Shown here: one piece after another, positions 32,911 through 61,919 of the stretch
Layout: each line of letters starts with the position of its first letter
Position numbering within the stretch: position 1 is the first letter of the stretch
Source of the DNA: Patescibacteria group bacterium
Lineage (GTDB): Bacteria; Patescibacteriota; Minisyncoccia; Phycocordibacterales; GCA-2747955
Direction: 5' to 3'
NCBI GenBank assembly: GCA_048538215.1
Contig: JBLYPV010000001.1
Location: 467,850 to 531,849 of the forward strand
Length of the DNA stretch: 64,000 nucleotides
Translations under genes and position numbers: made by a program
Notes under the pieces: model-generated
What the model was told of the DNA's origin: nothing
Databases searched by the model: none
The model's input: only the letters and a program-made list of their open reading frames with translations

Positions 32911-33969
32911 ATGGATGCCATATACAGTAATATTAAAATAGAAAAAAAAGAGCAATCCACTCTAGAAATTAGCGGTAGTATTGCCTGGGACAATTTATCG
33001 TCATATTATAAAAAAGAATTAGAGAGACTTTCAAAGCAGGTAGAAATTGATGGTTTTCGTAAGGGCACTGCTCCGCAAGAGATAGTAGAAAAAGAGCTGG
33101 GTGAGATGCGTATTATGCAAGAAGCGGCCCAAAGTGCTTTAGGGGATGCATATCCAAGCATAGTCTTACAAGAAAAGCTCGCAATAATCGGCTACCCACA
33201 AATTCAAATTACCAAGCTTGCCCGTGGAGATGATTTAGAGTTTAAAATTACTACTGCTATTATGCCCGAGCTTAGGCTTGGAGATTATAAAGCAATTGCA
33301 GCTTCAAAAAATACCGAAGAGCTTACCGCCCAAGTGACTGACGAAGAATTTAATCAATCAGTAGAGCAGTTGCGTACTATGTATGCACATTCGGCTGAGG
33401 GGGCAGTAGATACCGGCAAGGGAGATCCAGATAGTATGCCTGATGTACCAGAGCTATCTGATGAATTTGTACAGAAAATTGGCAATTATTCAGACGTGGA
33501 AGATTTTAAGACTCGTTTTCGAGAAGAGCTACGAGATCGCAAATTGCAGGATGCTCGCGCCAAACGAAGAGAAGAGATTATTAATGAAATTGTCTCACAA
33601 TCACAATTTGATTTACCTGAGGTTTTAGTGGAGTCGGAGAAGGATAAAATGTTGGCACACATTAAGGATGATATTACCCGAATGGGGCTCGAGTATAGTG
33701 CTTGGTTGGAGCATTCAGGCAAGAGCGAGGAGGATATGCGTGGAGAAATGCATCCCGACGCCGAAGCTCGAGCTAGGGCAGATATCGTTCTCAAAGAAAT
33801 TGCTCGTTTAGAGAATATTAGCCCTGATGAAGAGAAAGTAAAGTCACAAATTTCGGCTATCAAAGAGGTGCACAAGGATGTTTCAGAAGAACAGATCCGT
33901 GCCTATGTAGAAAACATTTATCTCAATGAAGCGGTCCTAGTCTTCCTTGAAGGGCAAAAAAAATCATAG
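32911..33969 (+). CDS. tig: Trigger factor lacking the PPIase (FKBP) domain
   Basis: N-domain signature GFRKGTAPQEIVEKELG. Only 352 aa; the N-domain connects directly to a C-domain-like region. Confidence 0.75.
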   Translation: MDAIYSNIKIEKKEQSTLEISGSIAWDNLSSYYKKELERLSKQVEIDGFRKGTAPQEIVEKELGEMRIMQEAAQSALGDAYPSIVLQEKLAIIGYPQIQITKLARGDDLEFKITTAIMPELRLGDYKAIAASKNTEELTAQVTDEEFNQSVEQLRTMYAHSAEGAVDTGKGDPDSMPDVPELSDEFVQKIGNYSDVEDFKTRFREELRDRKLQDARAKRREEIINEIVSQSQFDLPEVLVESEKDKMLAHIKDDITRMGLEYSAWLEHSGKSEEDMRGEMHPDAEARARADIVLKEIARLENISPDEEKVKSQISAIKEVHKDVSEEQIRAYVENIYLNEAVLVFLEGQKKS

Positions 33970-34009
33970 GAAATGTGGATTGCTCTGTGGATATGTTATT
34001 AACTACTTG

Positions 34010-34040
34010 AAAAAGCCGGGCATATGCCCGGCTTTTTCTT
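34010..34040. terminator. Bidirectional intrinsic terminator after tig
   Basis: AAAAAGCCGGGCATATGCCCGGCTTTTTCTT. Confidence 0.6.
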
Positions 34041-34201
34041 GTTTGTGCTATAAATTAGCAAAAAACCGGATATTTCTCCGCTCAAATGAGTATTTTTACA
34101 TTCAAACCATACTTTTGATACTATGTAAAATAATCGTTATAATTCATAGGAAATTAGTAGGTTTAGCAGTTATGGTCAATATGGTAAGTAAATGAAATTA
34201 T

Positions 34202-52564: not shown

Positions 52565-52604
52565 CGAGTAGGCAATAGATAGGCAAGAGCTTCCCAAATA
52601 AAAT

Positions 52605-52641
52605 ATGCTAAAAGTTGTCCGGGCTCGACAACTTTTAGCAT
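52605..52641. repeat. Family-B palindromic element (ATGCTAAAAGTTGTCC-GGGCT-CGACAACTTTTAGCAT); it is in a terminator-like position after the operon
   Basis: Read in the sequence. Confidence 0.7.
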
Positions 52642-52863
52642 AAAATGGGGGGAGGTGAAATAGGGGGGATGTATTTAATTAAATTATTTTTTAATTTTTT
52701 AATTTTAGATTGTGTCTACAATTGAAGAAGTGTATGTCTAATCCAAAGAATCTGTATTAAGTGGGAGAGGAGATATGCTTAAGGGGGTATGTATAAAATA
52801 AAGTTCGCCCGGAGGGCGCGCTTATTTATCTAATACTAAATGAAAAATACATTACTAGCTCTA

Positions 52864-53229
52864 TTACTCCCCCATATGAGCAATACAGGTAGGAGCTGAA
52901 GGATTTGCTTCTAGTCGCTCCTTTTCTATCTCTTTGCCACAGCGTACACAGAGCCCAAAGCTACCAGCATCGATACGATTAAGGGCTTCTTCCACCATAC
53001 GATAGCGTATCTCAAGCTCATTGGTGATTGATTCATTGCGAGTAAATGATTCAAGCTCTGTCCCTATCTCTACTGGGTCTAATGACGGTGGTTCGCTAGA
53101 GAAATCATCTTCACGGGCTTGAAAGCCCCCATCAGCGCGCTCATTTTTTATTGCTATTTTTCCAAGCTCTCTTTTCAAAAGCTCCTTATCTTTTTCCAAT
53201 CGCTCTTTATATTCTTGTATATCAGTCAT
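52864..53229 (-). CDS. DksA/TraR-family C4 zinc-finger protein
   Basis: CVRCGKEIEKERLEANPSAPTCIAHM (C-x2-C ... C-x2-H/C). Start set at MTDIQEY. Confidence 0.7.
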   Translation of the reverse strand: MTDIQEYKERLEKDKELLKRELGKIAIKNERADGGFQAREDDFSSEPPSLDPVEIGTELESFTRNESITNELEIRYRMVEEALNRIDAGSFGLCVRCGKEIEKERLEANPSAPTCIAHMGE

Positions 53230-53282
53230 ATTCGCGATTATACCTACTCGTGTAATTAGTGCAAGAAGAGCAAAATATAAAT

Positions 53283-53729
53283 AAAAAAAGAGCCCCAACG
53301 CGCGTGGGGCTCAAAAGTGCAGACGCACTCGGCTAGCCGAGAGTGTTGGCAGCCGAAGCTAGCCGAGCGCGTCATATCTTGCCGACCAAAGCAAGTCGCC
53401 ATAATTTTAGCAAATACCCCAAACTTGTCTAGGGCACGGAGGGTGGGGTGCCGTGCTTGCGCACGGCACCCCGATGATCAGGCTCGAGATCAATCGCTTG
53501 TGGCGACCGAGTGAGCTTCTGTATGGCAGCCATAGAGTGGGCTCGATATTCCTGCTGATTGCTCAACAAGAATCGAGCTTTCCTCCGATACGAAATTTGG
53601 CGGGAGTCTGTGAAGCTCTTCAGCCCCAAGCCCAATACCAAATCCGTAGCAGACTACCATTATTTTCATCATCGTTTTCTCCTTCGCTTTGGTCGGTTAT
53701 TTGCACCAGCAATCTGCCAATTGCCAATG
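53283..53729 (-). ncRNA. Unassigned structured ncRNA candidate (~450 nt) with its own promoter and terminator
   Basis: ORF-poor and GC-enriched relative to its surroundings. Extended -10 TGTGTATAAT on the minus strand (plus-strand coordinates 53738-53747). Intrinsic terminator GAGCCCCACGCGCGTTGGGGCTC plus U7 at 53283-53312. Long-range perfect 11-bp complementarity CCGACCAAAGC/GCUUUGGUCGG between the 5' and 3' parts; several strong local hairpins (GGGGUGCCGUGCGCAAGCACGGCACCCC; CUCGGCUAGC...GCUAGCCGAG). Contains GGAGGAAAG, reminiscent of RNase P RNA J3/4, but no CR-V element. Confidence 0.4.
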
Positions 53730-53808
53730 CGCGAGCTATTATACACAAAAAAATGCAATCGTATATGGAGGGCCTGGTGAGAAGTTTGCTATAATGGGCA
53801 CACAAGCT

Positions 53809-55380
53809 ATGTTTAGAGTACGATATCACACGCCACTACTGCTAGGATTGCTGGGCGCTATTTTGGCTCTCCCCGGTGCTTTTGTCTTTGCAAAAATTGA
53901 TGTACGCGAGATTCAAAACAATCTTCAAGAAACATCCAATCAAATATCCGAGCTAGAGCAAGAGATCAAACAAGATGAAGCAGAGCTCGATCGGCTCAAA
54001 GGAGAAAAGCAAACCCTCTCAAGCACAGTATCCAGCCTCAATGCTTCTCAGTATCGGCTCGAGAAATCTATCAAACAAACAGAATCTACCATACAAAAAA
54101 CAGAGCAAGAAATCCTCACCCTTTCCGAGCGTATCGCCGAGCTCGAGCAATCTATTAGCCAGAATCGAAAGGTAATTGGCACTACAGTACGAGAAATCTA
54201 TAAATCAGAAGATACAAGTGTCTTTGAGGCTCTGCTCATCTATGATACTTTTTCTGAATTTCTTGCCGAGAGTGATGCCCTTCGGCAAACAGGTGTCGTC
54301 CTCAAAAAAGAGCTGGGCACCCTCGAGGCCACCTATGGACGATTGAAAGACACGACGCAAGAAAAAGCTCAAGCCAAGTACAAGCTTGAGACTGAGCAAG
54401 AAAATCTTCAAGACCGCAAACAGGTAGTGGCATACACCAAGCGGAGCAAGGAGACCCTTTTAAAAGAAACACAAAATAAAGAAGAAGTATACCAGCGTAC
54501 TCTGGCAGAAAAGCGCCAGGCCTTGCGAGAATTTGAAGCACAGATGCAACAGCTTGAGCTCGAGCTCAATATTGCTATTGATGAATCACGGGTACAAGAC
54601 CCTCTGGTAGGCTTGTTTAGCTGGCCTTTTAGTAATTGGTATCGTATCACCCAATTTTTTGGCAATACAAGCTATGCTTCAAGCGGTGCCTATAATGGCC
54701 GTGGGCACAGTGGGGTAGATTTTGCCACTCCGCTGGGGACACCTATATTGTCACCAATGGATGGGGTGGTGATGGCAGCTGATGATACAGGAGCTCATGG
54801 CGCTCGTATCAATGGCTCATATCAGCAGTGTATTTCATATGGAAAATGGATCGTTGTAGATCACCAAAATGGGCTTTCCACTCGAGTCAATCACCTCTCG
54901 CTCATTAAGGTACGAGATGGCGAGAGGGTGCGTCGTGGGCAGGTCATCGGCTACTCGGGCAATACTGGTATATCTACTGGACCACACTTGCATGTTTCGG
55001 TGGCTGCTACTCAGGGAGTACAAATTCGTCGCCTTGGGGATGTTATTACAACTACCGCTTGTCGAGACGCACGAGCGCCCATCATCTCCTCAAATGCGTA
55101 TCGTGATCCTTTTGATTATTTCCCCCGCCCGCACTTTACTCTCAGTGAAGTAGCGCTCGGTGATAGAGGCACTTCAGTACGCAATTTACAAATGATGCTC
55201 AAGCACGAGCGTATCTTCCCTATAGAAATCTCAGCCAATGGGGTGTATGGCCCTACTACCGCCAAGGCAGTCCTCAAGTGGCAGAAAAAATATCGAGTAG
55301 ACAATCCTTCAGAATTGGATGCCCAAGCTGGCAAAAGCTTTGGTGAAGCATCACTCAAGCGCTATCAATCTTTCTTCTAG
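53809..55380 (+). CDS. M23-family murein endopeptidase (EnvC/lysostaphin-like) with N-terminal coiled coil and C-terminal PG_binding_1 domain
   Basis: HSGVDFA...GNTGISTGPHLH M23 zinc motifs; coiled-coil N-terminal half; C-terminal LSEVALGDRGTSVRNLQMML...GPTTAKAVLKWQ. Start set at MFRVRY (signal peptide) behind TGCTATAAT. Confidence 0.8.
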   Translation: MFRVRYHTPLLLGLLGAILALPGAFVFAKIDVREIQNNLQETSNQISELEQEIKQDEAELDRLKGEKQTLSSTVSSLNASQYRLEKSIKQTESTIQKTEQEILTLSERIAELEQSISQNRKVIGTTVREIYKSEDTSVFEALLIYDTFSEFLAESDALRQTGVVLKKELGTLEATYGRLKDTTQEKAQAKYKLETEQENLQDRKQVVAYTKRSKETLLKETQNKEEVYQRTLAEKRQALREFEAQMQQLELELNIAIDESRVQDPLVGLFSWPFSNWYRITQFFGNTSYASSGAYNGRGHSGVDFATPLGTPILSPMDGVVMAADDTGAHGARINGSYQQCISYGKWIVVDHQNGLSTRVNHLSLIKVRDGERVRRGQVIGYSGNTGISTGPHLHVSVAATQGVQIRRLGDVITTTACRDARAPIISSNAYRDPFDYFPRPHFTLSEVALGDRGTSVRNLQMMLKHERIFPIEISANGVYGPTTAKAVLKWQKKYRVDNPSELDAQAGKSFGEASLKRYQSFF

Positions 55381-55463: not shown

Positions 55464-57665
55464 ATGCGGATTTTACAAAAATATAGCGTTTTACTAGCAA
55501 TACTAATTGCCCTGCCTCTCCTGCTAGCTCATCAAGCGTGGGCACAAGATGCCCAAGCAGAAATTGAAAATACTATTAGCGATATTAGTCTAGAGGCAGA
55601 GGGAGCAATTCTAGTATCAGGAAGCATCGCAAGCTCGAGTAATAGAGGCCCCTTCTATATTCAAGCAGTGCTTTCCGACAAAGATGGTATCACGCGCGAT
55701 AGAATCCAGAGCAGACAAGCTCTCATCCCTGGCTCTTCTTACGAAGAGCGATTCAAGTTTGGTCTCTCGCCTGTTACCAGTGATAGGGTAATACTTATGA
55801 CCGTCACCGAAAGCGGAATTCCCTTTGATATTGATCCTCTACAAATAAAGTGGAGTAGTGATACCCCAGAAGCCCGCACCAATGAGATCCTTGATATTAT
55901 TTCTTGTGAGCATCAAGACGCCTCAGAAGAGCTGGTTTGTAGCTATCGAGGAGAAGTGGATACTCAATCTATCACCGTACGGCTCTATGATGGTCAGCCG
56001 TATACTGCTACACAAATAGCAGAGACTACTTCTTTGATACAAGAAGAATTAGATGGAGAGCTTGTTTTAAGTGCCTTTGCCAAGCCACAAGAAGATGGCT
56101 TGTATATTTATACAATTACTGATGACCGAGGCACCCTACTACACCAAGGCTCTGTGCGTAGAGGAGCAATTCCTGGATTTGAAAAGGAGCAGTCACTTGC
56201 AGATCAAGAAAAGCAGGATCAGCAGAGATTTTTGATGATACTCGGTGCTTTGAGCCTTGCCTTTTTCACTGCAGTGATGATGCTTTCACAATTCTTATTG
56301 AACCCAAAGAAGACTCGTTGGATATGGATTGGGGTGGGAGCTCTTATTCTTGCTTTCTTGAGTGTGTGGTATGTCGCTTATGCAGCCACCTATCAATCTA
56401 CCAATTATCCGCAGTACCAATATGTAGTGGATGTTACTCCTATTGATGCCACCGAGAATGTAGATGGTGATGTAATCGATACGACCTATATCATTTCTTT
56501 TAGTGCCTTTGATACTTATACAGGCAATGCGCCTATGGAGCAAAAGGTAGATATTACCTTCGATGGCTCTACCTACCAAGCATTTATTCGAGATGAATCA
56601 GGAGAAGTGGTGCATTCTCGCCAGGTCACTATCGCCGAAAGTGAAAAGAACACGAGTGCTCTCAAGGTAGTCGATGGCTGTGGAAGCTACTACCAATTCT
56701 CTGAAGCAGGCACTGATGTATACGGGAGCTACGACTGTAGCCCATACCCACTCTTTAATCTTGATGCCACAATCGGCTGTATGAATCCAAATGCTAGTAA
56801 TTATGATCCGAGTGCTATCATTTCAAGCGGGCAATGTAATTTTGGGGGCTGTATCATCCCAAGCGCGCTTAATTACAATCCATCAGCCACTATTGATGAC
56901 GGCTCATGTGTGGTCGAGGGCTGTGTAAATCCAGAGGCTACTAATTATGATCCGAAAGCCACTATTGATGACGGCTCATGCCTCTGTGGCGGTGGCTCTT
57001 GCGAGGATGTATATGGCTGTACCAATCCTGAATCCTCAAACTTCAATGAGCTAGCCACTATTGATGACGGCTCGTGCGATAATTGTATGTGGATACCGAT
57101 TATTCCTGACCCTTCTACCTTCTGTGCTACCGAGATCTATTACCAAACCAATAGCTGTACAAAAGAAGTACGCACCGTACAAGGCAATTTGCAATCTAAG
57201 TGGCTCCCCGATATATCAGCAAATGATATTTGTATTGGTGATTTTGTCACCCAAACCGAGCAGTGCTCACCACTTGATAAGCCCGCCACTCGAGTGCTCG
57301 AGGGTACGAGCAATAGCCCATTCTGTTTTGCTCCCATTACAGAATTTGAAGTATCTACCAATCTCACTAATTGGACTAGTTGTGAAAAGATAGGTCGCAT
57401 CCAAATGACTCATCCGAGCCAAGAGCTTTACTTGCGACCATCAGGTACTGAGCCAGTAGACTCATGGGCAATTTCACAAGAAGCTGGAGAGATTAGTGGC
57501 TCGGTGAGCTCATATAAGGGAGATGTGTGGAAAGCACAATTCAATTATCTTGTTGAGCAAAAGCAATTCAATGATGTGTCGATTACTATGAGGTCGCCTG
57601 CAGGGAATGAGGCCACTCAGCTTTGTAATATTTCTCTCTTGAGCTTTAGTTTTGAGGAGCGCTAG
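55464..57665 (+). CDS. Surface protein with signal peptide, two central TM helices and a C-terminal array of ~33-aa Cys-containing repeats
   Basis: Four tandem repeats of the form GC.NP.A.NY(D/N)P.AT.DDGSC. Confidence 0.55.
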   Translation: MRILQKYSVLLAILIALPLLLAHQAWAQDAQAEIENTISDISLEAEGAILVSGSIASSSNRGPFYIQAVLSDKDGITRDRIQSRQALIPGSSYEERFKFGLSPVTSDRVILMTVTESGIPFDIDPLQIKWSSDTPEARTNEILDIISCEHQDASEELVCSYRGEVDTQSITVRLYDGQPYTATQIAETTSLIQEELDGELVLSAFAKPQEDGLYIYTITDDRGTLLHQGSVRRGAIPGFEKEQSLADQEKQDQQRFLMILGALSLAFFTAVMMLSQFLLNPKKTRWIWIGVGALILAFLSVWYVAYAATYQSTNYPQYQYVVDVTPIDATENVDGDVIDTTYIISFSAFDTYTGNAPMEQKVDITFDGSTYQAFIRDESGEVVHSRQVTIAESEKNTSALKVVDGCGSYYQFSEAGTDVYGSYDCSPYPLFNLDATIGCMNPNASNYDPSAIISSGQCNFGGCIIPSALNYNPSATIDDGSCVVEGCVNPEATNYDPKATIDDGSCLCGGGSCEDVYGCTNPESSNFNELATIDDGSCDNCMWIPIIPDPSTFCATEIYYQTNSCTKEVRTVQGNLQSKWLPDISANDICIGDFVTQTEQCSPLDKPATRVLEGTSNSPFCFAPITEFEVSTNLTNWTSCEKIGRIQMTHPSQELYLRPSGTEPVDSWAISQEAGEISGSVSSYKGDVWKAQFNYLVEQKQFNDVSITMRSPAGNEATQLCNISLLSFSFEER

Positions 57666-57692
57666 AGCTAGAGGGTGTAGCTTGTAAAAGAC

Positions 57693-57730
57693 AAGAGCCC
57701 GCGCCTTCGGCGCGGGCTCTTATCTATGAG
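57693..57730 (+). terminator. Intrinsic terminator
   Basis: AAGAGCCCGCGCC-TTCG-GCGCGGGCTCTT followed by ATCTATGAGATTTTATTT. Confidence 0.6.
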
Positions 57731-57769
57731 ATTTTATTTAAAACAAGAAGCCAGACACCCCAGATAAAA

Positions 57770-58816
57770 TTACTTGCGTATCATTTTGAGAATCTGCTTG
57801 AAATAAGCGCGCCCTATATACGGGTAATACCACCAAGAAGTAGGCAAATCATAGCGGGGATAATGCAAGAGCTTTTCCCCACCAAAGCCGAGCTTGAATT
57901 GATTGAGCCCGGCTAAGGATGCGTCATCTTCTCCCACACTAATACCACCCCAATTAAAATCTTGAATACCTTGCTCCTTGAGATGCTTGATAATCTCCCA
58001 TTTGATAAAGTAGTAAGCACCTAATTCGCGCTTGCCTCGCTCGGTGCTGGCTCCATAGGGGCAATAGGCGTGCTTGCCAAAGATAGTGATGATATTGATA
58101 GCGTGGATTTCTTGCTCGCTGTCTCGCACCACCGCTACAAATGATTTTTTGTTGCCCGCGAGCGCTTCAAAAAGTATTTTAAAATGAGTATCACTATGAG
58201 TAGTGGTGTGGTGAGCTTGAGTAGTGGCTTGATTGATACAGATAAAATCATCACGAGAGCCAAGTAGATCATTGCCGTAAGCAAATTCTATAGATAGATT
58301 ATTTTTTTGTGAGGCAGTAATATTTCGTCGAGTACTTTTAGAGCACTTGTGCCAGAGAGTATCAATTGGGGCTTTGAGATTTAATAGTGCTTCACCTTCG
58401 GCTTGAGCAAAGCTTGTTGTATTAGGATAGGGGGCTTGGCGAAAAGCTTGATGAGGGCGAGGAAGCTCGAGCCGGAGGAATATAAGCTTGTGACGAGAGG
58501 CATAATCACGCAAAAAATTGGCGAGCTCATCAAGGATAGTGTCATCCGGAGAGCTAAGCCATACAGGGCCGTACGGAATATCTGCAAGTTTTAAGCCATA
58601 GCCGAGGGGATAATGAATGATTGCAAAGTAGCCGATGATTTTTTTGCTTGATTCTTCTTCGATGATAAGGTGCTCCGCATCACGATTGAGCTTGTGCTGG
58701 AAATCTAGATACTCCAAGCTATGTTGCCAGTGAGCAATATCCAATCGTGCCCATTCTCCTGAAGGTGCTGTGCGAAATATATAGCGAGGGCTTGTCATAT
58801 CTATAGAGTATAGCAA
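57770..58816 (-). CDS. FemAB-family peptidoglycan peptide-bridge aminoacyltransferase-like protein
   Basis: GNAT-like tandem fold; signature NWGGIS...LNQFKLGFGG resembles the FemX/FemAB motif. Confidence 0.55.
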   Translation of the reverse strand: MLYSIDMTSPRYIFRTAPSGEWARLDIAHWQHSLEYLDFQHKLNRDAEHLIIEEESSKKIIGYFAIIHYPLGYGLKLADIPYGPVWLSSPDDTILDELANFLRDYASRHKLIFLRLELPRPHQAFRQAPYPNTTSFAQAEGEALLNLKAPIDTLWHKCSKSTRRNITASQKNNLSIEFAYGNDLLGSRDDFICINQATTQAHHTTTHSDTHFKILFEALAGNKKSFVAVVRDSEQEIHAINIITIFGKHAYCPYGASTERGKRELGAYYFIKWEIIKHLKEQGIQDFNWGGISVGEDDASLAGLNQFKLGFGGEKLLHYPRYDLPTSWWYYPYIGRAYFKQILKMIRK

Positions 58817-58909: not shown

Positions 58910-59106
58910 AAATCGTTGAAATAATTTAAGGCTTATTCCTAGAGCGGATGAGCTTGCTATTCTAAGGTTTTAAGTTAAGTGATGTACTTAAAAGCCAAAG
59001 GCCTGAAATATGCATTTTTATATTACAAATCCCACTTTTCTAGTATCTTTGTGTATAAGTAGCGCTCTTGTATGCTTCGTTCGCGTGTATAATTATGAGA
59101 AGTAGT

Positions 59107-61278
59107 ATGTCATTTTTTGCCGCTAATCATCAGGAGCGACCGAAAGCAGGAAATGTCCGAATTATCGGGCTCTTTGCTTGTGCTCTGCTCTTGCCTGTGC
59201 TCGCTTTTGCACAGCAATCGGCTCCTCCGGGCAATAATACCGATCCACCTATCAATACGGGGAGCGCCTCACAGATAAAGGCAGGAGGGCTGAGCCTCGG
59301 CTCTTTAGTAGTAGAAGGGGGTATTATTTTTGAGGGCAATCTGGGGATTGGCACTAGTGGGCCAGCTAGTAGCCCGCTTGAGGTAGTGGGCAGTGCGGTG
59401 AGTATTATTTTTGGTCAGAATGATAATCCAGCTTATCAAGCCCAGCTTATAAGTGGTGATTCTTTCTATGGCTTTCGTGATGGTGATGGGGCTAGCACCT
59501 TGAGCATCTTGCAATCCAATGGCTCTGTGGGTATCGGCACTACTACTCCATTACAAAAATTACACGTAGATGGCAATCTGGCGCTTACTACAGGGCAACA
59601 CATTTATTTTGGAGGCACTAGTGGGCAAGACCTGTATGGTGATGGAGCCACAGCACTTTATTTTGATTCTGCAAGTGCCAACACGGCATATTTTCTTATG
59701 CGTAATTCAGTCAATGCTCCTCTGGGCTATTTGTATGGAGACAACACAGGTAATTTTGGCTTACTTGATGCAGATGGCAATTGGGCTATCCAAAGTGATA
59801 CCGACGCCAACATCAATTTCCGAGTAAACAACGATGAAAAAATGCGCATCCTCTCGAGTGGCAATGTGGGGATTGGGACAGCGAGTCCCGGATTGAAATT
59901 TGATGTATCAAATACATCAAATCAAGCTAATTTGGGAGTTATCCGTACAGATGGCAAATGGGCTACCCTATATGCAGGTTCTGGATTTTCAGGGATAGGG
60001 TTTGATAATTCAGGATATTTCAATATTAGTCCAGAATCTTCTCGTACCGGAACTACGGCAGGCGGAGGGTTGACTATTAATAATCTGGGCTCTGTCGGCA
60101 TCGGCACCACAGCTCCCAGCGCAGGGCTCAAGCTAGATGTGGCAGGCAAGGTAGGAGCTACAGAGTATTGTGATGCAGATGGAGCTAATTGTACCCTTGC
60201 TGCTAGCTTGGGGGGAGGCGATAATTTGGGCAATCACACTGCCACTCAAAATCTTGTACTTGGAAACAATAGTATCACTGGCATCGGAGAGCTTCAATTT
60301 AATAGTGGAAGCAATCATAGTATTACCTCAAATGCTGCTGGGCTTATTTTTGATGGGGGTGACGGTACTCCTGACTTTTTAATCTACGATAATCAATCAT
60401 ACACCAACAATCTTATGCTAGGATATAATGGCACAGCTATTCTCTCTACCTACGACACCAATGAAGACCTGCAGATATCTGCTAATGGTACGGGGATAGT
60501 AGATATCAATGATAGTGTAGATATTTCAGGTGAACTCACCCTCTCTTCTGCTCGAAAGATCAATTTTGGTAGCCAGGAATTGTATGGAGATAATAACACT
60601 CATTTATACTTTGATTCTAATAATGTTAGTATTGCAAGTTTTATGCTCCGTAATTCCAATAATGCAGTTATCGGTTCACTTCATGGGACTAATACTGGTA
60701 TGTTTGGATTATTAAATGGTTATGGCAATTGGATCATTCAATCAAATCTCGATGACAATATCAATTTTCAGGTATCTAATAGTGAAAAAATGCGCATTGA
60801 TTCTGCTGGACAAGTGCAAATTGCTACCACTACCGCTACCTCATCACTCAAGCTTGCGGTAGATGGCAAGGTAGGAGCTACCGAGTATTGTGATGAAAAT
60901 GGAAATTATTGTAGATCACTAGCTGCTGGCTGGCCATTTATCAGCTCACCGATAGCACATCCTGGAAATGGTAATGCTATTGTAGTAAATCATAATTTAC
61001 CCGCTGCCCCCAATGAAGTCCAGGTAGATATAGTAAATGTAGCAGCTAGCGGTGTATTTGACGGTGGATATACCACGGGGGAACGTATTTATAATGTACC
61101 GAGCTTGTCTCAAACAAATGACGGTCTTCACCAGATGGGAATAGTAGTGATGACAGATAATAGTAGTCAGATAAAAATGAGAGTCTCTTCTCTGGGTTTT
61201 TTTATGGTGCAAAAAGATAGCGGTGCTCCATTTAGGTTGGATCCTACTAAGTGGAGCTTTATCGTTAAAGCCCGGTAA
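59107..61278 (+). CDS. Secreted tail-fibre-like repeat protein with internal duplication (GNVGIGT...KLDVAGKVGATEYCD modules)
   Basis: Signal peptide; repeated GN(V/L)GIGT(S/A)xP...L(K/E)(L/V) motifs; two ~250-aa halves each ending KL(D/A)V(A/D)GKVGATEYCD(A/E)(D/N)G. Confidence 0.55.
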   Translation: MSFFAANHQERPKAGNVRIIGLFACALLLPVLAFAQQSAPPGNNTDPPINTGSASQIKAGGLSLGSLVVEGGIIFEGNLGIGTSGPASSPLEVVGSAVSIIFGQNDNPAYQAQLISGDSFYGFRDGDGASTLSILQSNGSVGIGTTTPLQKLHVDGNLALTTGQHIYFGGTSGQDLYGDGATALYFDSASANTAYFLMRNSVNAPLGYLYGDNTGNFGLLDADGNWAIQSDTDANINFRVNNDEKMRILSSGNVGIGTASPGLKFDVSNTSNQANLGVIRTDGKWATLYAGSGFSGIGFDNSGYFNISPESSRTGTTAGGGLTINNLGSVGIGTTAPSAGLKLDVAGKVGATEYCDADGANCTLAASLGGGDNLGNHTATQNLVLGNNSITGIGELQFNSGSNHSITSNAAGLIFDGGDGTPDFLIYDNQSYTNNLMLGYNGTAILSTYDTNEDLQISANGTGIVDINDSVDISGELTLSSARKINFGSQELYGDNNTHLYFDSNNVSIASFMLRNSNNAVIGSLHGTNTGMFGLLNGYGNWIIQSNLDDNINFQVSNSEKMRIDSAGQVQIATTTATSSLKLAVDGKVGATEYCDENGNYCRSLAAGWPFISSPIAHPGNGNAIVVNHNLPAAPNEVQVDIVNVAASGVFDGGYTTGERIYNVPSLSQTNDGLHQMGIVVMTDNSSQIKMRVSSLGFFMVQKDSGAPFRLDPTKWSFIVKAR

Positions 61279-61469
61279 AGTTTGTAGCTTGATGATGGGG
61301 GATGAGGAGGGCGGGGCCAAAGGCCCCGCCCTCTTCCTTTCAATCCTTAAAAATCAAGGATTGAAAGGATTAAGATTTCTAAGCCCTACAAATGGGAGAA
61401 TAATCACCCCCCATTTATACACAAGCCCCCACTTATCAAACACCCAATAATTAGCTACTATAAAGCTAT

Positions 61470-61919
61470 ATGAAACACATACTCAAAAACACCACACTCG
61501 TCTTGGGAGGTATTGCCCTTGCTATAGGCAGTATGGTATTCGCTGCTACCTGGCAAGGCACTGATACTATTCAAAATGGACAAATCATAGAAGCAGATGT
61601 TATTAAAGATAATTTTGATTATTTGTATGAGCTAGTAGGGGAAGTGAAAGCTAGTTGTAGTGGAGGAGGAAGTATTATCCTAGGAAAGAACCCTATTACG
61701 GGTGAAAATATCACTCAATCACTACCAGCTAATGGAGGAGAGCATCTACAAGTAGCAGGAGCAGATGGAACAGTATACCAGTGTCTTGATGGTAGCTGGA
61801 ACGCTATCAATATGGGCTCAGGAGCAACATCTAATAATCCATGTCCTCCTGGACAGCAATTGGTGAATTCTGGTGGTGGGATGATGGTATGTAATCCAGG
61901 CGCTGGAGGCCCACAATAA
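61470..61919 (+). CDS. Small secreted Gly-rich protein
   Basis: Signal peptide LVLGGIALAIGSMVFA; no family recognised. Confidence 0.4.
   Translation: MKHILKNTTLVLGGIALAIGSMVFAATWQGTDTIQNGQIIEADVIKDNFDYLYELVGEVKASCSGGGSIILGKNPITGENITQSLPANGGEHLQVAGADGTVYQCLDGSWNAINMGSGATSNNPCPPGQQLVNSGGGMMVCNPGAGGPQ

Follow-up and report, generated by a model that had tools for sequence, protein, structure and literature searches.

The spacer between two divergent genes, dksA/traR (minus strand) and an M23 peptidase gene (plus strand), in a 64,000-nucleotide (nt) stretch of a 622-kb Patescibacteria contig from a metagenome-assembled genome (JBLYPV010000001.1), hereafter called the window and providing all coordinates used below, is occupied by a minus-strand element of ~450 nt. 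A first-pass annotation, made from the sequence alone, had correctly placed the element in this spacer and interpreted it as a large structured RNA devoid of any credible open reading frame (ORF). Computational analysis resolves it into a conserved transcription unit containing an ORF with a coding-type substitution pattern, two covarying arms, one of which lies next to the Shine–Dalgarno (SD) sequence of this ORF, and a predicted occlusion of the SD itself. The element is very probably not a non-coding RNA and is probably a structured small-ORF mRNA that locks its own translation, possibly with a small RNA (sRNA) nested within it on the same strand.

The comparative evidence comes from five homologous lineages, namely the window, L001 (= L002, L003), L004 (also L005), L006 and L170, and from L171, in which only the 3′ half of the element is present. 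L001, L004 and L006 are the contigs having the closest DksA homologs (62–71% identity) and carry the homologous region upstream of dksA, and L170 was found by a profile search with the product of the small ORF. The nucleotide identity of the core among these homologs is 31–55%.

The premise that no credible ORF exists in the region does not survive this comparison, for the SD-preceded frame of 60 amino acids (aa) at 53672–53490 is open in 5/5 lineages and displays coding-type substitution. An SD (AAGGAG, GAGG or AAAGGAG) and a start codon are followed by 60, 65, 60, 63 and 60 codons in the five lineages, and this is the only frame that is stop-free in all of them, the other sense frames containing 2–4 stops each. 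The probability that the frame is open by chance is 0.045–0.11 per lineage, with a product of 1.3e-6 that overstates the significance as far as lineages of 31–55% nucleotide identity are not independent. When the sequences are aligned by MAFFT without regard to frame, the window, L001 and L170 remain 100% in phase and the indels, one of which is 21 nt long, are all multiples of three. The third codon position is the most variable in every pair (e.g., 18/17/32 differences at the three positions between L001 and L170), the sum over six pairs being about 142/151/206, and the mean amino acid identity is 0.39, as compared to 0.17–0.34 in shifted and antisense frames. Likewise, in the pairs formed by the window, L001 and L170 the proportion of nonsynonymous differences (pN) is 0.33–0.43 vs. 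0.71–0.88 (saturated) for the synonymous ones (pS). Since SD, start codon and open frame have been kept with in-frame indels and an excess of third-position changes, the ORF very probably codes for a protein and is presumably translated. Conserved homologs of a short ORF showing codon periodicity, the finding that the first-pass annotation itself had named as speaking against a non-coding element, do indeed exist.

The predicted product has a hydrophobic N-terminus of ~13 residues (Kyte–Doolittle ~2.0 in all lineages) and an acidic remainder, with a 19-residue hydrophobicity of 1.1–1.75, a net charge between −2 and −7, two invariant cysteines and an EELHRxPP motif. Its only homologs among 5.8 billion word-indexed proteins and 1.84 billion proteins searched exhaustively with HMMER are P0029–P0032, all unannotated; the ORF of the window was not called by the NCBI annotation and is missing from the protein database. 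The 3889-aa protein P0033 matches the 61-position profile with E = 5e-18 and has 0 individually significant stretches, probably representing a compositional or repeat artefact. A 48-aa frame at 53402–53256, downstream of the promoter-like site P2 described below, was also considered and rejected: it lacks an SD and extends across both the terminator and the promoter of dksA, its similarity among relatives following the conserved terminator DNA.

The unit in which this ORF is embedded has its own transcription signals. The extended −10 element proposed in the first-pass annotation (TGTGTATAAT) is present at 53747–53738, with its TG located one base off the canonical TGn position. The promoter to which it belongs, P1, is conserved across all lineages, the sequence TTTTTGTGTATAAT being identical in the window, L001, L004 and L170 and having TGCGTATAAT as its counterpart in L006. 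The intrinsic terminator postulated at the other end was found as GAGCCCCACGCGCGTTGGGGCTC followed by U7; it is conserved in L001 and L004, and another hairpin followed by a U-run occurs in L171 and L006. The element is also GC-enriched (0.48–0.59 vs. 0.37–0.46 in the flanks), as the first-pass annotation had stated.

The transcript delimited by these signals is exceptionally structured. Its minimum free energy (MFE) on the minus strand is −216 kcal/mol, with a z-score of −9.7 relative to dinucleotide shuffles, and since z is only −4.6 on the plus strand the fold is strand-specific. After regression of the fold energy on GC content over 848 windows of 450 nt covering the whole 64 kb, the element ranks 1/848 (residual z −5.8), on the minus strand only. 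The homologous transcripts have z-scores of −8.2, −8.5 and −7.7, which makes four full-length lineages with the window. Independent MFE folds yield one common architecture in all five lineages: the 5′ end forms a hairpin; arm A, the 5′ arm of a long-range helix, stops 1–3 nt short of the SD; past the ORF, a GC hairpin soon after the stop codon precedes a CU-rich tract, behind which come the 3′ arm of the helix (arm A′), a further, long hairpin and finally the terminator. The strong internal hairpins reported earlier are thus confirmed, one of 12 GC-rich bp at 53472–53445 and one of 16 bp at 53373–53322. A strong hairpin of other sequence takes the place of the former in every lineage, and a counterpart of the latter, its stem altered in sequence, is predicted at the equivalent position of L001, L004 and L171; the helices inside the ORF also display compensatory changes between lineages. 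A sequence repeated on the minus strand, AU(A/C)UCGAGCC, is found both at the stop codon (53481–53490) and within the ORF (53540–53549); each copy could pair with an upstream GCUCGAU (~53572–53578), which suggests alternative (metastable) pairings in the coding region.

The long-range helix is the feature of this architecture that bears most closely upon translation. The perfect 11-bp pairing between CCGACCAAAGC and GCTTTGGTCGG is real (53696–53686 with 53392–53382); 293 nt separate its two arms and it encloses ~315 nt, not ~330 as originally estimated. Because a duplex test that includes the 5′ hairpin is confounded by that hairpin, complementarity was assessed without alignment between the 30 nt preceding the start codon and the 45 nt following a conserved TGCTAnAAT block, with 2000 shuffles. 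The longest Watson–Crick run amounts to 11 bp in the window (equalled by 0/2000 shuffles), 10 bp in L001 (4/2000) and 11 bp in L004 (2/2000); it is 6 bp in L170, where a second 6-bp run lies across a bulge (537/2000), and 7 bp in L006 (GAGCAAC/GTTGCTC, 263/2000), where the run overlaps the SD. In the full-length fold of L006, GGAGCAAC pairs with GUUGCUCU over ~8 bp, covering the SD. The sequences of the arms differ from one lineage to another, and in a cross-lineage matrix every 5′ arm forms its strongest duplex with the 3′ arm of its own lineage, the energies being −23.2, −15.0, −19.3 and −21.7 kcal/mol for the cognate pairs as compared to −5 to −15 kcal/mol for the non-cognate ones. Arms A and A′ therefore covary among relatives, a property that the first-pass annotation had suggested looking for, and their match must be kept by selection because the arms are not antisense-encoded. 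That the element gives rise to a discrete minus-strand RNA is supported by its own promoter and terminator, its strong fold and a long-range helix under selection.

A second pairing is predicted to involve the SD directly. CU-rich tracts are found at the equivalent place in L001, L004, L170 and L171, and in the MFE fold of the window the tract pairs with the GGAG of the SD. When the partition function is computed for transcripts cut at the stop codon, the SD is unpaired with a probability of 0.5–0.8; upon addition of the GC hairpin and the CU tract this value falls to 0.00–0.05 in the window, L001 and L004 and to 0.27 in L170, and inclusion of the 3′ untranslated region (UTR) takes that of the window from 0.51 to 0.01. 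In L006 the complement of the SD is located further downstream and the SD has an unpaired probability of 0.08 in the full-length RNA. The conserved arms next to the SD and its predicted occlusion indicate that the fold is selected and, insofar as these models hold, targets the ribosome-binding site.

A promoter-like sequence, P2, separates the CU tract from arm A′ and is the best promoter match of the region (10/12 plus TG). Its equivalents score 11–12/14 in 5/5 lineages, 80–91 nt past the stop codon, and conform to the consensus TnGACA-16/17-TGCTAnAAT, with variation confined to the least constrained positions (TnGACA, TAAAAT or TACAAT). L171 also has a P2, and the equivalent place in L006 is occupied by a non-homologous yet canonical TTGACA-17-TATGAT. 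The transcripts predicted to originate from P2 are 115–147 nt long across the lineages, and only a few bases would precede arm A′ in them; folded alone, they present arm A′ within a small 5′ hairpin or beside it, followed by a 16–18-bp hairpin and by the terminator shared with the mRNA. The covarying complementarity of this candidate sRNA to the 5′ UTR extends over 10–13 nt. No conserved antisense promoter is found inside the element in the five lineages. When the window and 175 loci were scanned with a covariance model (R1) of the 3′ module, no lineage beyond those already known was matched and there was no stand-alone copy; a truncated copy of the module in L170 was matched independently (E = 0.011).

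The distribution of the element is narrow. It is single-copy in the window by nhmmer, and its nhmmer profile gave no match in 160 further dksA loci, obtained from genome and metagenome contigs by a scan with a DksA profile, and detected known relatives only among 166 dksA-linked loci plus the window. The locus lacks the element in contigs whose DksA homologs have ≤57% identity (L007, L167, L168), and none of the four contigs with M23 homologs at 62–66% identity contains it: in L174 (M23 66% identical) dksA and M23 are divergent neighbours with ~130 nt between their likely starts (1654–2162), thus constituting an “empty site”, and the element is also absent from L172, L173 and L175. Since there are relatives in which M23 and dksA are adjacent without it, the element is, judging from the loci compared, a ~450-nt cassette whose gain or loss took place inside a narrow patescibacterial clade. 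The dksA frame of L174 has been stretched to 157 aa by the gene caller.

Table 1. Position of the element, its parts and the adjoining genes in the window.
Feature	Coordinates	Strand	Remarks
M23 peptidase gene	ATG 53809	plus	start set by NCBI's 523-aa product
Promoter P1 (T-run + TGTG + TATAAT)	53738..53753	minus	−10 hexamer 53743–53738
Whole primary transcript, ~450 nt	53283..53732	minus	from the predicted P1 start through the terminator U-tract
5′-terminal hairpin	53703..53732	minus	begins at the predicted +1; stem sequences differ among the five lineages
Arm A (5′ arm), CCGACCAAAGC plus GA	53684..53696	minus	inverted repeat I7; abuts the SD
SD, AAGGAG	53679..53684	minus	6 nt upstream of the ATG
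ORF, 60 codons (MMKIMVVCYGFGIGLGAEELHRLPP...SVATSD)	53490..53672	minus	orphan small acidic protein (predicted)
12-bp GC hairpin, GGGGUGCCGUGC-GCAA-GCACGGCACCCC	53445..53472	minus	inverted repeat I6, 100% complementary; 17 nt past the stop codon
CU-rich tract ACCCUCCGUGCCC, predicted anti-SD	53432..53444	minus	CUCC 53441–53438; pairs with GGAG in the MFE fold
Promoter-like P2, TAGACA-16-TGCTAAAAT	53404..53431	minus	canonical extended −10; between CU tract and arm A′
Putative 3′ sRNA, ~115 nt	53283..53397	minus	small 5′ hairpin carrying arm A′, long hairpin, terminator
Arm A′ (3′ arm), UU + GCUUUGGUCGG	53382..53394	minus	inverted repeat I7; cross-lineage duplex test
Long hairpin of the 3′ domain, 16–17 bp	53322..53373	minus	inverted repeat I1
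Intrinsic terminator	53283..53312	minus	8-bp stem with 6 GC pairs, then U7
dksA promoter, TTGCAC-16-TATAAT	53237..53264	minus	ends 7 nt before the dksA ATG; kept in L001, L004, L171
dksA/traR-type zinc-finger gene	ATG 53229	minus	Pfam PF01258

The suggestion of the first-pass annotation that the element could be a divergent RNase P RNA or a different large non-coding RNA finds no support, given the lack of an Rfam match, the lack of conservation of the motif on which it was based, the absence of the element from the locus in relatives and the presence of an ORF that is very probably coding. RNase P RNA is essential and near-universal, has invariant core blocks and bears no protein-coding signature. 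Its resemblance to the element consists of a length of ~450 nt, a promoter and a terminator of its own, a high degree of structure and a single 9-mer (GGAGGAAAG) similar to conserved region I (CR-I) and J3/4. This 9-mer is indeed in the window, but L001, L004, L006 and L170 have unrelated sequence in its place, and the core blocks of RNase P (CR-I, GGAGGAAAGUCC..., and the CR-V partner with which it forms P4) are not conserved among the homologs, whose low core identity contrasts with the invariance of those blocks. The RNase P RNAs of the Candidate Phyla Radiation (CPR) have diverged and some are found only below noise cutoffs (PMC8172020), so that a permissive Rfam search is what matters here. 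The search proposed by the first-pass annotation returned nothing for RNaseP_bact_a/b, tmRNA, signal recognition particle (SRP) RNA, 6S RNA or large non-coding RNAs: with Rfam 15 at gathering score over the whole window no family was matched in the region, at E<=10 on 801 nt (53100–53900) no RNase P, tmRNA, 6S, SRP or large non-coding RNA family appeared, and at E<=0.5 there was no RNase P match in the whole window. The sub-threshold matches are far under the gathering scores, several of them (RcsR1, Betaproteobacteria toxic sRNA, ncS54, suhB) lying over the terminator hairpin and the 3′ domain. Nor was any curated riboswitch, leader or OLE/GOLLD/HEARO/ROOL-type family of Rfam 15 matched, and ARAGORN detected three tRNAs only, and no tmRNA, in the window. 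Unlike RNase P RNA (RF00010/RF00011), the element matches no covariance model, shows neither a P4 partner nor conserved core blocks, contains an ORF that is conserved and looks translated, and is restricted to one clade, being absent at the locus in L174, L007, L167 and L168; identification with RNase P may be regarded as effectively refuted.

The reading of the element as a self-locking mRNA implies the following course of events. A ~450-nt accessory cassette having its own promoter and terminator would have been inserted between the divergent M23 and dksA genes, its transcript being the mRNA for an orphan acidic protein of 60–65 residues with a short hydrophobic N-terminus. A stable hairpin would cap the 5′ end of this mRNA, arm A, just 5′ of the SD, would pair with arm A′ ~300 nt downstream in the 3′ UTR, and the CU-rich tract behind the post-stop GC hairpin would pair with the SD itself. 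The SD would then be accessible only during synthesis, until ~60 nt beyond the stop codon have been transcribed; in the completed RNA it would be closed, so that translation would be restricted to a short co-transcriptional interval or to RNA whose 3′ part has been removed or opened, the finished transcript being presumably inert. If P2 is active, an sRNA of ~115 nt starting at arm A′ and ending at the common terminator would also be produced, and its 5′ region could occupy the 5′-UTR site in trans.

Several observations weigh against this reading or limit its reach. The ends of the transcript and the promoter activity of P2 are predictions from sequence; the TGCTAnAAT block may be no promoter but a target of a nuclease or a motif of the RNA, and in three lineages the predicted folds place the −35-like element of P2 in a hairpin loop. 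With five full lineages and a partial one, the statistics on covariation are thin, and the SD of L170 is only partially occluded (unpaired 0.27–0.30). The long-range helix was missed by RNAalifold, whether the MAFFT alignment supplied to it covered the full transcripts or the 3′ domain; MAFFT leaves the arms of sequences as diverged as these out of register, and for this reason RNAalifold was replaced by the alignment-free per-lineage and cross-lineage duplex tests. As to the protein, Pfam recognized no family in the three longest local ORFs, and an AlphaFold2 model from the five-sequence alignment was uninformative (predicted local distance difference test score, pLDDT, 48) and was not used. 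The codons of VVC and CH, the two best-conserved peptide motifs, pair mutually and those of the C-terminal SVAxSD fall within a conserved hairpin, and part of the “protein” conservation may reflect constraint at the RNA level. Finally, a 113-aa antisense frame (53453–53794, plus strand) is open in 4/5 lineages; it shows neither third-position excess nor a coding-type pattern and probably mirrors the sense ORF and the GC-rich structure.

Some of these observations would fit a purely non-coding, new large RNA whose ORF is a by-product of structural constraint: the fold is very strong, strand-specific and conserved, the helices within the ORF change in a compensatory manner, the “protein” motifs that are conserved fall on paired segments, and the ORF, not called by the NCBI annotation, is missing from the protein database. 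Such a view must nevertheless accommodate an SD, a start and a frame of the same length in 5/5 lineages of such low identity, a combination with the minute chance product given above, together with in-frame indels and most variable third positions, in an RNA that belongs to no Rfam family and occurs in one small clade only; it is accordingly held to be decidedly improbable. The coding signature would also be explained by an ordinary small-protein gene whose mRNA is merely stable, the 5′ hairpin and the closed 5′–3′ structure being generic stabilisers against nucleases, TGCTAnAAT being no promoter and no regulatory sRNA being made, and this alternative draws strength from the fact that P2 and translational control are only predicted. 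On the other hand, stability alone requires neither arms abutting the SD in every lineage nor a separate CU tract placed to pair with it, the level of structure is extreme for the genome, and P2 keeps its −35 and −10 at the correct spacing in six lineages, in one of them with a non-homologous sequence; an ordinary gene thus appears unlikely, if somewhat less so than a pure non-coding RNA.

A more specific version of the self-locking mRNA is a module resembling type I toxin–antitoxin systems, in which the peptide would be harmful, the full-length mRNA inert and the P2 sRNA the antitoxin, binding to the 5′ UTR beside the SD. Type I toxins are small, usually under 60 aa, hydrophobic and membrane-active, and we know of no precedent for a tandem arrangement of toxin ORF and antitoxin sRNA on the same strand. 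The 5′ stem-loop, the SD/anti-SD pairing, the 5′–3′ interaction and the 3′ terminator are all predicted (PMC8594479, PMC6733600), the length of 60–65 codons and the hydrophobic N-terminal 13-mer are suggestive, the cassette is a clade-restricted insertion and there is a candidate sRNA with covarying 5′-UTR complementarity. Yet the peptides are acidic and of limited 19-residue hydrophobicity, as opposed to the typical cationic or transmembrane type I toxins, no antisense promoter is conserved inside the element, the window has a single copy and none stands alone among 175 loci, and the known toxin families show no homology in Pfam and protein profile searches. A type I-like function is therefore regarded as doubtful, although a less remote prospect than the ordinary gene. 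The same tentative, rather doubtful standing is given to the idea that the self-locking mRNA and its nested same-strand sRNA constitute a self-contained switch in which a single sequence serves both as cis clamp and as trans regulator or antitoxin, possibly the first type I-like cassette in CPR bacteria.

The genes at either side of the element have features of their own. Neither dksA nor M23 has an SD, in contrast to the strong SD of the small ORF, and both genes appear to be leaderless or almost so. The M23 TGCTATAAT (within 53787–53811, plus strand) ends 13 nt before the ATG, and the antisense 113-aa frame ends exactly at 53794, an earlier candidate for the M23 start. The close spacing between promoter and start of dksA is kept in L001, L004 and L171 and is similar in L174. 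Downstream of dksA (52604–52642 and 52806–52818) there are a short GC palindrome (CGCCCGGAGGGCG), forming a terminator-like hairpin on both strands, and a 16-bp AT-rich stem, terminator-like on the minus strand. Elsewhere in the window, the second most structured segment after GC correction is 61051–61650 (residual z about −3 on each strand), which spans the 3′ end of a 736-aa ORF (59068–61278) and the spacer before the next ORF, has weak sub-threshold Rfam matches to ar35 and mir-483 at 61182–61340, and could be a large inverted repeat or a terminator region. Weak Thr_leader and Leu_leader matches on both strands at 57653–57773, between the convergent ORFs 55464–57665 (plus) and 57770–58816 (minus), are most simply explained by a bidirectional terminator hairpin, not by a leader, and sub-threshold Leu_leader and BSnc120 matches on both strands at 33884–34105 suggest another hairpin-rich intergenic element.

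What emerges from this analysis is the removal of a false lead, this CPR element not being an RNase P RNA, and the recognition of a comparatively supported small-protein gene missed by standard annotation in a Patescibacteria genome; the region seemed “non-coding” because its small ORF was unannotated. The mRNA bears, as far as its modelled folds indicate, the translational self-locking hallmarks of type I toxin mRNAs, and if the nested same-strand sRNA is real it would represent a new arrangement in which complementarity is kept by selection and not by antisense overlap. To our knowledge, regulation by RNA has hardly been explored in CPR bacteria, which are uncultured organisms, and this makes sequence-defined, testable modules useful entry points. 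The general importance of the element is limited for now, since it is confined to a few related metagenomic lineages and has no assigned role. Text searches of the literature returned no paper on a type I system or on an sRNA of this sort in Patescibacteria, which is weak evidence of absence.

The closest analogues of the plan of this mRNA appear to be the hok mRNA of plasmid R1 and the aapA1/aapA3 mRNAs of Helicobacter pylori, membership in the type I class not being established by this analogy. Type I toxin mRNAs are characterized by a 5′ stem-loop, SD/anti-SD pairing, a 5′–3′ long-distance interaction, a terminator and a primary transcript that is not translatable (PMC6733600, PMC8594479), an architecture which the element reproduces in silico through the folds of the five lineages, the SD occlusion and the covarying arms. 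Shared with hok and aapA are a small ORF in a much longer transcript, a stable 5′-terminal stem-loop, an intrinsic terminator, helices maintained by compensatory change and, as predicted here, a far-downstream anti-SD that holds the SD by 5′–3′ fold-back (PMC6733600, PMC8594479). The element differs from them in lacking sequence or family homology, none being detected to toxin/antitoxin families (Hok, Ldr, TisB, Ibs, Fst, AapA and others) by Pfam, profile and Rfam searches, in the acidic and weakly hydrophobic nature of its peptide, in being single-copy in a CPR host and in having no promoter for a cis-antisense RNA, the sole candidate partner RNA being encoded on the same strand, in the 3′ UTR.

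As regards this putative sRNA, the nearest parallels are OppZ and CarZ of Vibrio cholerae, which share the 3′ end of their parental mRNA and have a seed complementary to the parental ribosome-binding region (PMC7398697, PMC9438474), and MicX, a 3′-end sRNA that has a dedicated promoter internal to the parental transcription unit (PMC9438474). Like the former, the putative sRNA would be co-terminal with the parental mRNA and complementary, in a covarying manner, to its translation-initiation region; like MicX, it would have its own promoter. OppZ and CarZ, on the other hand, are Hfq-dependent products of RNase E cleavage that act on polycistronic operons through Rho termination, whereas the sRNA proposed here would originate from a promoter of its own in the 3′ UTR, its target would be the 5′ UTR of a monocistronic small ORF, and the sequence of its arm A′ may also clamp the mRNA in cis by fold-back.

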